Source: a virus (lineage: Duplodnaviria > Heunggongvirae > Uroviricota > Caudoviricetes). Taken from it: a stretch of DNA of 6,699 nt. Under the pieces are notes generated by a model. That model was not told where the DNA came from. It did not search any database and worked only from the letters and a program-made list of their open reading frames with translations. Positions 5,824 to 6,366 of this stretch are shown here, piece after piece (the first letter of the stretch is position 1; the number at the start of each line of letters is the position of its first letter). The DNA lies in the IMG/VR virus record IMGVR_UViG_2529293265_000005, one strand, 5' to 3'. The translations under genes were made by a program, and so were the position numbers.

Positions 5824-6000
5824 ATCCCGCCCCCGACAGACCTGTGCTATCGGAAAGAAAAAGGCCATCAGCAAAACTCTGATGGCCTGAATCACCTTTA
5901 CCAATATTGTATGAAAAAACACGCACGACTAATTGACAATAATTTTCATTTCCATTAAAAAAGATCGCGTAGCATTCTTAATTCATGAGGAACTTTACCC

Positions 6001-6063
6001 GCCAGCAATCTGAGTAGCGAAAGCTGTTCATCCCCAATGTTTTTGCTGGCGGGTCCTTTTTTT
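6001..6063 (+). other. Long-loop hairpin followed by a T-run on the plus strand (terminator-like or structured RNA element)
   Basis: GCCAGCAA (6001-6008) pairs with TTGCTGGC (6043-6050) around a loop holding a small AGC-GAAA-GCT hairpin, then GGGTCC and seven T (6057-6063). A second GC-rich hairpin (6071-6090) follows. Confidence 0.25.
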
Positions 6064-6220
6064 CTACGGTCCTCCTCCCCGGAGGGGGGCATTTCATTAT
6101 TTTTCTAATCGTTACTGGTGAGAAGGCGGAAGAAAAAGCCAGTTCTTCGCCCCTAAATAACAGCATGATTCCAGTCCATGCAAAATCTGATTTCCAGCTC
6201 ACACATACCGAGCACTGTAC

Positions 6221-6242
6221 AAAAAACCGCCAGCCAAGGCAG
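6221..6242 (-). terminator. Candidate intrinsic terminator on the minus strand (possible tR'-like element upstream of the lysis genes)
   Basis: Minus strand reads CTGCC-TTGGCT-GGCGG-TTTTTT: a 5-bp stem (4 GC pairs plus one G.U that pairs only in the minus-strand RNA), 6-nt loop, then six U. It lies about 400 nt upstream of the holin start. Confidence 0.3.
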
Positions 6243-6366
6243 TTAAGAGTGTGTTCCCGGGGTTTGCTTAGAATATTTTGTAAGTTGTCCGAAGAGATAT
6301 TTACAACACCAGAATGATGCATTATCAGTCCCCTGCCAGAGGTTCACTACGTAACCTGACCGACAA

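Follow-up and report, generated by a model that had tools for sequence, protein, structure and literature searches.

A putative small regulatory RNA gene and late-strand terminators upstream of the holin gene in a decayed lambdoid prophage

Described prophage small RNAs and the plus-strand unit

In many prophages of enterohaemorrhagic Escherichia coli (EHEC), convergent small RNA (sRNA) genes are found at the moron site downstream of PR', and within the families of prophage sRNAs the 3' part is conserved and the 5' part variable (Tree et al. 2014, PMC4104026). The stretch analysed here, called the window throughout, is a viral DNA of 6,699 nucleotides (nt) (IMG/VR record IMGVR_UViG_2529293265_000005), and the element in question is a plus-strand unit at 5933-6063 within the non-coding interval 5924-6366, upstream of a P21-type holin gene. 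The window covers the late region of a lambdoid prophage that has decayed and has its late genes on the minus strand. We lean towards the reading that the interval is a spacer with two minus-strand terminators and a self-contained plus-strand sRNA gene at 5933-6063, antisense to the late operon and likely Hfq-dependent and trans-acting. Judged by its sequence, the unit is probably an undescribed small regulatory RNA gene; it appears to belong with the convergent sRNA genes that prophages carry in the cargo slot ahead of the lysis cassette, and it falls in no named family.

Three groups of described sRNAs were used for comparison. PasA (85 nt) and PasC (78-79 nt) were validated in enteropathogenic E. 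coli (EPEC) by Northern blot and by RNA interaction by ligation and sequencing (RIL-seq), and both were less abundant in a ∆hfq strain by RNA-seq (Pearl Mizrahi et al. 2021, PMC8550237, Tables S2 and S6). Their genes lie between a sialate esterase gene and the holin gene, on the strand opposite the holin ('> < >' in Table S6, PMC8550237), and the esterase-PasA-holin-lysozyme arrangement was also noted by Zhu, Shabalina and Storz (2026, bioRxiv 10.64898/2026.05.13.724894). EcOnc32 was recovered by Hfq crosslinking and analysis of cDNA (CRAC) and gave a Northern band of approximately 112 nt (Tree et al. 2014, PMC4104026). In EPEC RIL-seq it was found in 900 and 304 chimeric fragments, always as RNA2, with a U-tract of 6, and its amount was approximately 7.5-fold lower in the ∆hfq strain (PMC8550237). 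Esr41/EcOnc14 (RF02676) is an Hfq sRNA encoded on the EHEC island SpLE1 which regulates iron uptake, colicin sensitivity and motility (PMC5286369).

The window unit opens with a promoter-like box (5933-5961, plus strand) in which a perfect TTGACA (5933-5938), followed by an A to give TTGACA(A), is separated by a 17-bp spacer from the -10 element TAAAAA (5956-5961). The unit and the holin gene are on opposite strands (plus and minus, respectively), and TTGACA is separated from the holin ATG by 110 nt. Transcription from this promoter would start at about 5968 and would give a predicted RNA of approximately 96 nt (5968-6063, plus strand), the 3' end of which is the U-run. When 5968-6063 was folded, the minimum free energy was -30.9 kcal/mol (z = -3.9 compared to 200 shuffles). 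The layout of the predicted RNA is a variable 5' part, a small hairpin at 5975-5991, a CUUUA linker, a terminator hairpin and a U7 tail. The terminator is a long bipartite hairpin (H1, 5997-6054, plus strand; GC core 5998-6053) composed of a 12-bp outer stem and an 8-bp inner stem (6011-6018/6023-6030) with a GAAA loop, and its stability was -28.8 kcal/mol on the plus strand and -27.4 kcal/mol on the minus strand. The T7 run which follows it (6057-6063; T6 in relatives) is on the plus strand only, so that H1 would be a one-directional terminator. The U7 tail (U6 in relatives) and the CUUUA directly 5' of the hairpin are sequence hallmarks of Hfq-associated sRNAs. Further downstream, a second plus-strand hairpin of 9 pairs (H2, 6069-6090) is a possible back-up terminator. 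In the window type its plus-strand stability was -15.5 kcal/mol, whereas the IHE3034 and ColV lineages had the more stable form on the minus strand.

The unit is part of a holin-proximal non-coding module (block B, 5823-6203, not assigned to a strand) which was found over 5800/5890-6203, at 84-88% identity, in approximately 1,440 of 5,426 complete E. coli genomes, in 928 chromosomal and 643 plasmid places. These copies form five shallow sequence lineages. Among GTDB species representatives, the hairpin core was present in E. coli and S. flexneri only, and a blastn search of a phage collection with 5900-6370 gave no match. Across the five lineages, the promoter box varied in 4 of its 29 columns (14%), with no insertion or deletion in the spacer, and H1 varied in 9 of 58 columns (16%), compared to 38-47% variable columns in the module outside the promoter box, H1 and the holin-side terminator (T_S, described in the next section). 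The variable 5' part of the RNA accounted for 16 varying columns out of 36 (44%). In every lineage, the relics that have no holin among them, H1 retained a stability of -21 to -29 kcal/mol. Moreover, the TTGACA and TAAAAA hexamers were intact in these holin-less relics (ColV and chromosomal), in which T_S had decayed. The retention of H1 and the promoter box while T_S decays fits a gene function that is independent of the lysis genes and is a poor fit to a purely cis-acting leader element.

The preliminary description of the window, made from the letters alone, had proposed that a plus-strand RNA of about 100 nt, antisense to the late leader, might be encoded here. This proposal gains support from the islands of conservation and from the design shared with PasA/PasC, EcOnc32 and Esr41, and all of the sequence features listed in it were present at, or a few bases from, the positions given there. 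It had also seen no credible open reading frame (ORF) in the interval, which agrees with our results: there are ORFs of 45-114 amino acids, but in no case are frame or extent retained across the five lineages, and there was no Pfam match. A small protein was considered and rejected, as a partly recurring frame (LAG..PHE..LR..) is broken by a 1-nt insertion or deletion in the window type and its changes are mostly non-synonymous. A 10-codon ORF, MRNFTRQQSE, is found inside the predicted RNA (5986-6018, plus strand), and its length is kept in the five lineages (M-[RK]-x-x-T-R-Q-Q-[SP]-[EK]). It is probably incidental because it has no Shine-Dalgarno sequence and half of it is an arm of the conserved hairpin.

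The window unit resembles the described sRNA genes in layout. PasA and PasC, which are homologues of EcOnc51/52, occupy the same slot, with a cargo gene, an sRNA gene on the opposite strand and the holin and lysozyme genes in succession. In the E2348/69 sequence, TTGACA begins 34 nt before their reported 5' ends, and TCAGAA occupies the place of the -10 element. They share with the window unit a TTGACAA approximately 35 nt before the 5' end, a -10 element without the final T, a GCCAGC/GCTGGC terminator and a U7 tail, and PasA has in addition a second, downstream 3' end, which we likened to the arrangement of the window unit. In contrast, PasA and PasC are shorter (78-85 nt) and lie behind a sialate esterase gene and not behind tRNA genes. 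The PasA/PasC terminators were misaligned by MAFFT, and no covariance model was built from them.

The regions upstream of the holin in E2348/69 PP4 and Sakai Sp3 are identical, and the antisense unit which they contain starts with ATTGACAATAAT and extends 127 nt to the end of the T-run. This unit is EcOnc32. Like the window unit, it lies directly upstream of a class II holin gene and antisense to it; the -35 context is ATTGACAATAAT, the unit is 127 nt compared to 131 nt, and the terminator T_S is at the same offset from the holin ATG. It also has a small 5' hairpin, a long GCCAGC.../...GCTGGC terminator and a U-run. In contrast, its RNA body is unrelated and contains an Esr41-like UUUCUCCA region, its terminator has no inner stem, and its -10 element is TATAGA/ATAGAA where that of the window unit is TAAAAA. 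In a global alignment of the two units, the z score was 4.0, a value that 3 of 500 shuffles attained and that is owed largely to the promoter. Against the Rfam Esr41 model, EcOnc32 scored 32 bits, as a sub-threshold relative, and the window unit scored nothing. EcOnc32 is overlapped by two 'hypothetical protein' calls, E2348C_1013 (3612-3741 of locus L012, PP4) and ECs_0817 (2078-2207 of locus L147, Sp3). RIL-seq chimeras assigned to E2348C_1013 map to the EcOnc32 terminator, indicating that this coding sequence call is probably spurious.

Esr41 has TTGACAA 35 nt before its 5' end (taken as the first position of the Rfam model) and a CGCCGGC/GCUGGCG terminator followed by U7; it was located by Rfam, as the coordinates of the 2014 table do not fit NC_002695.2. 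The distance from TTGACAA to the 5' end, the GCCGGC-type terminator stem and the U7 tail are shared with the window unit. However, Esr41 is 74 nt long, has a different seed region and is encoded on a non-lambdoid island with no neighbouring holin gene.

An unannotated antisense unit was observed at the 3' end of the nanS-p esterase gene in Sakai Sp5, the VT2-Sakai Shiga toxin 2 (Stx2) prophage (10088-10202 of locus L065, minus strand), and it was present in 252 phage records, mostly of Stx phages. Its promoter is nearly identical to that of the window unit (TTGACAATAA-N7-TTTTCATTAAAAA), with the identical TTTCATTAAAAA at the place of the -10 element. The terminator, CCGCCAGCG/CGCTGGCGG followed by T7, has the CCGCCAGC/GCTGGCGG stem and the orientation of the window unit. 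In contrast, the 5' body is different, with an Esr41-like UUUCUCCAU (28 bits), and two small ORFs separate the unit from the holin gene.

The window lineages were also used to build a covariance model (R1), which was applied to 98 kb of related and unrelated loci. Its only matches, both on the correct strand and in register, were to the Sp5 unit (20.2 bits, E 0.029) and to EcOnc32 (19.4 bits, E 0.047); PasA and PasC were not matched. A composite signature was also written (TTGACAA, 45-85 nt, GCC[AG]GC, 5-42 nt, GC[TC]GGC, 0-7 nt, T5 or more). In 804 kb of loci it found only the window unit and the five reference units, compared to none in five shuffles; the signature was composed after the sequences had been seen, and this result therefore shows its specificity and is not an independent prediction. 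The window unit fits the informal design group of Esr41, EcOnc32 and PasA/PasC, with TTGACAA approximately 35 nt before the start, an RNA of 75-100 nt, the terminator stem and a U-run of at least 5. It also has the pattern of the families of Tree et al., namely a variable 5' part and a conserved 3' part. What Esr41, EcOnc32, PasA/PasC, the Stx-phage unit and the window unit have in common is TTGACAA, approximately 35 nt to the start, a variable body, a GCCRGC stem and a U-run. A grouping of these sRNAs by a shared cassette design is absent from the literature read for comparison, and if the cassette is truly shared, its signature would be a simple way to find more such genes.

Late-strand terminators and the two blocks of the spacer

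G+C-rich hairpins followed by a U-run were found at three places, 5888-5852 (minus strand), 6244-6219 (minus strand) and 5997-6063 (plus strand). In the region 5500-6699, there were 8 terminator-like sites compared to 1.2 +/- 1.0 in shuffles. The strongest minus-strand terminator, T_S (5852-5888), has its stem-loop at 5888-5862 and its tail, TTTTTCTTTC, at 5861-5852, just upstream of the holin ribosome-binding site. This terminator, with a 10-bp stem (-17.3 kcal/mol), is 30 nt before the holin start. T_S lies outside the interval of the preliminary description, which had missed it. It varied in 21% of its columns across the lineages and was intact in all of those that keep the holin, and it had decayed to -8 to -10 kcal/mol in the holin-less ones. 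A terminator homologous to T_S was present at an equal offset from the holin in E2348/69 PP4, Sakai Sp3 and Sakai Sp5.

The regions upstream of 80 class II holin loci, from IMG/VR and reference prophages, were surveyed and fell into 20 clusters of upstream sequence. A sense-strand hairpin with a T-run was found at most 150 nt from the holin ATG in 17 of these 20 mutually unrelated clusters. A sense terminator before class II holin genes appears to be general among these lysis cassettes and convergently maintained. In lambdoid late operons, Q-modified polymerase is needed to read through intrinsic terminators inside the operon. The frequency of terminators in the survey and the decay of T_S after loss of the holin suggest that T_S shields the lysis genes from transcription not modified by Q, and the presence of sense terminators before nearly all of the class II holin genes surveyed fits such insulation of lysis genes from Q-less transcription.

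The second minus-strand terminator (6219-6244) consists of a stem-loop at 6244-6225 and a T6 run at 6226-6221 and belongs to the trailer of a tRNA cluster. In the homologue of this trailer in locus L007, which is 71% identical, the stem is kept (CUGCC/GGCGG changed to CCGCC/GGCGG), the loop is replaced and the T-run is kept, which argues that 6244-6219 is a real intrinsic terminator that closes the tRNA block. The preliminary description had compared the hairpin at 6221-6242 to a tR'-type terminator: as a good intrinsic terminator with T6 it stood, and as a tR' it did not, since it is part of the tRNA trailer. The terminator at 6244-6219 is an internal terminator of the late operon. The similarity to the lambda pR'-6S RNA-tR' region is that the minus-strand hairpins of the window are intrinsic terminators in a Q-dependent late operon; the difference is that they are terminators at the ends of internal blocks, not next to Q, with no late promoter here.

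Nine E. coli genomes carry the region at approximately 99% identity without the insertion sequence (IS) that cuts the window at 6367. In one of them, CFSAN029787 (locus L001), the uninterrupted form of the sequence is present, and the order on the minus strand is the Q antiterminator gene, two hypothetical genes, a DNA methyltransferase gene, four tRNA genes, 680 nt of non-coding sequence and the holin gene. Q (9437-9808) is 3.4 kb upstream of the holin (5809-6024), and the only promoter-like site adjoining Q is at 9388-9360. The distal part of the window interval (block A, 6204-6366, minus strand) is the trailer of this tRNA cluster; it is continuous with tRNA-Gly in L001 and is cut by the IS911 copy in the window. 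Block A, in the form that extends to the tRNA-Gly gene, was found behind this tRNA cluster in L007 too, where the lysis cassette is unrelated. The homology switches from one block to the other directly after the hairpin and T6 at 6244-6219. Thus, the interval is a mosaic non-coding spacer in a Q-dependent late operon, between a tRNA cluster and a P21-type holin/endolysin/Rz cassette.

Block B always adjoined the holin gene or a remnant of the lysis cassette. The cargo upstream of it differed and consisted of tRNA genes in L001, the STnc100 sRNA gene in IHE3034, and genes for an ADP-ribosyltransferase and an AB5-toxin B subunit in N17. The holin has been deleted in three lineages, namely on ColV plasmids, where the relic is approximately 430 nt from iss, and in two chromosomal relics flanked by IS elements. 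On ColV-type plasmids (3281-4306 of p1ColV5155, locus L005, and approximately 640 other plasmid records), the relic consists of iss, Rz1, an Rz fragment and the module. The holin and lysozyme genes are deleted there, the hairpin and promoter box are intact, and the holin-side terminator has decayed.

The preliminary description had also pointed to a weak promoter-like pair on the minus strand, TTCTCA/AATAAT (6124-6096). This pair was the only promoter-like site found in 5500-6699 by a consensus scan, compared to 1.6 +/- 1.1 in shuffles, and was judged a chance match. It is not conserved, as its spacer has an insertion of 3-4 nt in IHE3034 and N17 and its -10 element is deleted in the ColV lineage.

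Proposed mechanism and competing explanations

In a lysogen, transcription coming from the tRNA or cargo block would end at 6244-6219, and minus-strand transcripts that escape this site would end at 5888-5852, before the holin gene. The plus-strand promoter would yield the RNA of approximately 96 nt ending at H1 and its U7 tail, with H2 as a possible back-up, and this RNA would act via Hfq on mRNAs elsewhere. After induction, Q-modified polymerase would pass both minus-strand terminators and enter the holin gene. The stops at the terminators and the read-through by Q-modified polymerase are deduced from established lambdoid biology and the sequence, and the sRNA step from the design, the conservation and the validated relatives. 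Expression in the lysogen, Hfq binding and action in trans on host or phage mRNAs would be expected because the design relatives Esr41, EcOnc32 and PasA/PasC behave in this way. Should the RNA be produced, approximately one quarter of complete E. coli genomes, Shigella and ColV virulence plasmids would carry a regulatory RNA that is in no catalogue. The carriers of ColV are avian and extraintestinal pathogenic strains, in which the unit is next to the serum-survival gene iss. The design relatives rewire host iron uptake, colicin sensitivity, motility and the expression of virulence genes, so that a further seed variant, if the RNA is made, would bring with it a new set of targets in the host.

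Several results weigh against an sRNA gene at this place. The TAAAAA element was missed by the consensus promoter scan because the conserved final T is absent, as the preliminary description had cautioned; this caution is softened by TCAGAA in PasA/PasC, ATAGAA/TATAGA in EcOnc32 and the identical TTTCATTAAAAA in Sp5. For EcOnc32, the Northern band of approximately 112 nt compares to 91 nt predicted with TTGACA as the -35 element, so that the promoter geometry is not proven for EcOnc32. The R1 matches are borderline and their E-values are rough. Comparison of the window unit with PasA and PasC gave no significance (local z -0.3 and -0.6, global z 0.55 and 2.3, respectively), and when a PasA/PasC nhmmer profile was run on the window, the unit was ranked third with E 0.07. 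The preliminary description had looked to known RNA families and to covariation for support, and neither was obtained. No relevant Rfam family was found, either in the whole window or, at lax thresholds, in 5900-6260. The Esr41 model, for which the gathering score is 102 bits and true Esr41 scores 108.6 bits, had no match in the whole window at E <= 1 or in the 361 nt of 5900-6260 at E <= 10. In H1, 97% of the cells were paired and no compensatory pair was found, in a test underpowered by lineages that are too alike; thus, of the conservation of the hairpins in related prophages that had been looked for, the retention of H1 in all lineages was found and compensatory change was not. Folding of both strands, likewise suggested there, gave a stable H1 and an outer stem that is equally good on either strand (107/108 cells paired). 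A full-text literature search with the hairpin sequence and EcOnc32/51/52 found no papers and no transcript record for the window unit, and the table of Hfq-bound sRNAs of Tree et al. has no entry at the coordinates of the Sp5 unit. Moreover, the gene may be silent in this window, the prophage being decayed.

Other searches and leads bear on the place of the unit among known RNAs. Covariance models of AsxR, AgvB and STnc100 had no match in the window, and the same searches recovered STnc100 in IHE3034 and both STnc100 and AsxR in Sakai Sp5. Rfam matches to mir-200, snoRNA and long non-coding RNA models in the window were set aside as chance. The nmpC/IpeX region of K-12 DLP12 was considered as a relative, and the lead was dropped because the locus shows no similarity to the unit. 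With RNAduplex and long sequences, the energies of the unit with the leader of entC, which is a RIL-seq partner of the EcOnc32-type RNA, were no better than those of shuffles.

We consider it unlikely that H1 with its T7 run and H2 are mere plus-strand insulators against stray antisense transcription from the lysis cassette (bor/iss-type genes, internal promoters), with no discrete RNA and an incidental TTGACA box. Two tandem plus-strand hairpins with T-rich tails, a weak -10 element and the position of iss, which both in relatives and on ColV plasmids lies downstream of the lysis genes on the plus-type strand, are what such insulation would predict, but it leaves unexplained why the TTGACAA-17-TAAAAA box is conserved as strongly as the hairpin, why the same box stands before a different body and a similar terminator in Stx phages, and why units of the same design are bona fide sRNAs. 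The conserved promoter box is equally unaccounted for if H1 is a cis structure of the late minus-strand transcript, such as an RNase III/RNase E processing site or a stabilising element in the leader of the holin mRNA, an explanation in which we place little belief. The outer stem of H1 is as stable on the minus strand (-27.4 kcal/mol; 107/108 cells paired on either strand), the module is always in the holin leader in intact prophages, and one ColV substitution makes a G-U pair if read on the minus strand and an A-C mismatch if read on the plus strand. However, H1 is nearly unchanged in relics in which the holin and T_S are lost or decaying, and the T-run is on the plus-strand side only. In addition, the invariant G-U pairs of the 8-bp inner stem, which become A-C mismatches on the minus strand, and those of the small 5' hairpin are possible on the plus strand only, in a comparison of strands that is biased by the use of the plus-strand fold as the structure. 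It is a rather distant prospect that the RNA has a dual function, in which the 58-nt bipartite hairpin, exceptionally long and nearly invariant, is more than a terminator and acts in trans as a sponge for a host sRNA or as a protein platform and the unit is also a safety gate in cis against leaky lysis or cargo toxin in lysogens. Such a gate would consist of convergent transcription, perfect complementarity to the late leader and the terminator before the holin gene. A hairpin that is a functional trans domain would explain the retention of the unit next to iss on ColV plasmids after loss of the lysis genes. A role in cis on the holin leader is speculative. Like lambda OOP RNA and P22 sar, the unit would have a promoter and a terminator of its own and produce a short RNA with full complementarity to a phage mRNA from the opposite strand, but OOP and sar overlap coding or ribosome-binding regions of their targets, whereas the window unit overlaps only untranslated leader, 145-240 nt upstream of the holin start.

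That the interval is non-functional filler, composed of recombination scars and the hairpins of old terminators and conserved through the recent spread of one prophage family, strikes us as very improbable. The existence of only five shallow lineages, in E. coli and Shigella only, the absence of covariation and the decay of the window prophage by IS4 and IS911 are all compatible with it. Nevertheless, the conservation is strongly uneven and tracks the predicted promoter and terminator, T_S and H1 diverge in their behaviour after loss of the holin, and the design is common to sRNAs in unrelated contexts, such as Esr41 on SpLE1. The explanation offered by the preliminary description, that the interval is a remnant pR'/tR' late control region with the hairpin at 6221-6242 as tR', is hardly tenable. 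Its hairpin and T6 are a good intrinsic terminator for the late strand, which Q-modified polymerase would have to pass. However, in the 99%-identical L001 the Q gene is 3.4 kb from the holin, with four tRNA genes and sequence equal to four protein-coding genes between them, and the interval thus does not hold pR'/tR'. The promoter-like site of L001 adjoins Q, a phage with another lysis cassette has the hairpin in its tRNA trailer as well, and the nearby minus-strand promoter pair is no more than expected by chance and lacks conservation. An sRNA gene placed between late-strand terminators is the reading that we favour.

Gene order of the window and further observations

Pfam confirmed the identity of the minus-strand genes, which are those for the portal protein (565-1809), the large terminase TerL (1915-3645), the small terminase TerS (3645-4145), an HNH endonuclease (4260-4607), Rz (4653-5126), the phage lysozyme that is the endolysin (5114-5608) and the P21-type holin (5611-5823). 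The prophage is flanked by an IS4 transposase fragment at the left end of the window (189-512) and by an IS911 copy at the right (6367-6699, plus strand). The latter contains the left end of IS911 and the start of orfA (6439 onward), with the HTH_Tnp_1 domain (helix-turn-helix of the IS3 family), and, from 6367 on, the window matches at 99.7% identity a copy that bears the annotation 'IS3-like element IS911 family transposase'. The interval 5924-6366 is therefore the non-coding DNA from the side of the holin gene, which starts at 5823, to the IS911 insertion, and its right limit, 6366, is the edge of that insertion, which the preliminary description had missed. As IS911 separates the late operon from Q and the tRNA genes, the lysis and packaging genes of the window are probably no longer driven by Q.

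In the cerebrospinal fluid isolate E. coli N17 (1986-3160 of locus L006), the genes directly upstream of the module encode a scabin-related ADP-ribosyltransferase and the B subunit of a subtilase-family AB5 toxin, and these toxin genes are in the slot held by stx in Stx phages. In IHE3034, a full-length STnc100 gene (114.5 bits; 6518-6706 of locus L002, minus strand) lies just upstream of the module and is followed by what appears to be another convergent terminator pair, indicating that several sRNA genes may be stacked before the holin in this genome. In some copies of the window type (L013, L015 and several IMG/VR loci), a different downstream sequence is joined right after GTCTGTCGGGGG, which places the left recombination boundary of the module at approximately 5835.

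The 280-nt trailer from tRNA-Gly to the terminator (6204-6366 in the window, 6427-6704 in L001) is 71% conserved in an otherwise different phage. It had no Rfam match, and it could be an RNA of the 3'-external-spacer type or a short sense sRNA; a C/A-rich stretch, GGGAACACACUCUUAAC, is found just before its terminator. The window holin has the N-terminus MYQMEK, with Met1 and Met4 (5812-5823, minus strand), a start reminiscent of the antiholin/holin dual-start motif in the phage 21 pinholin.

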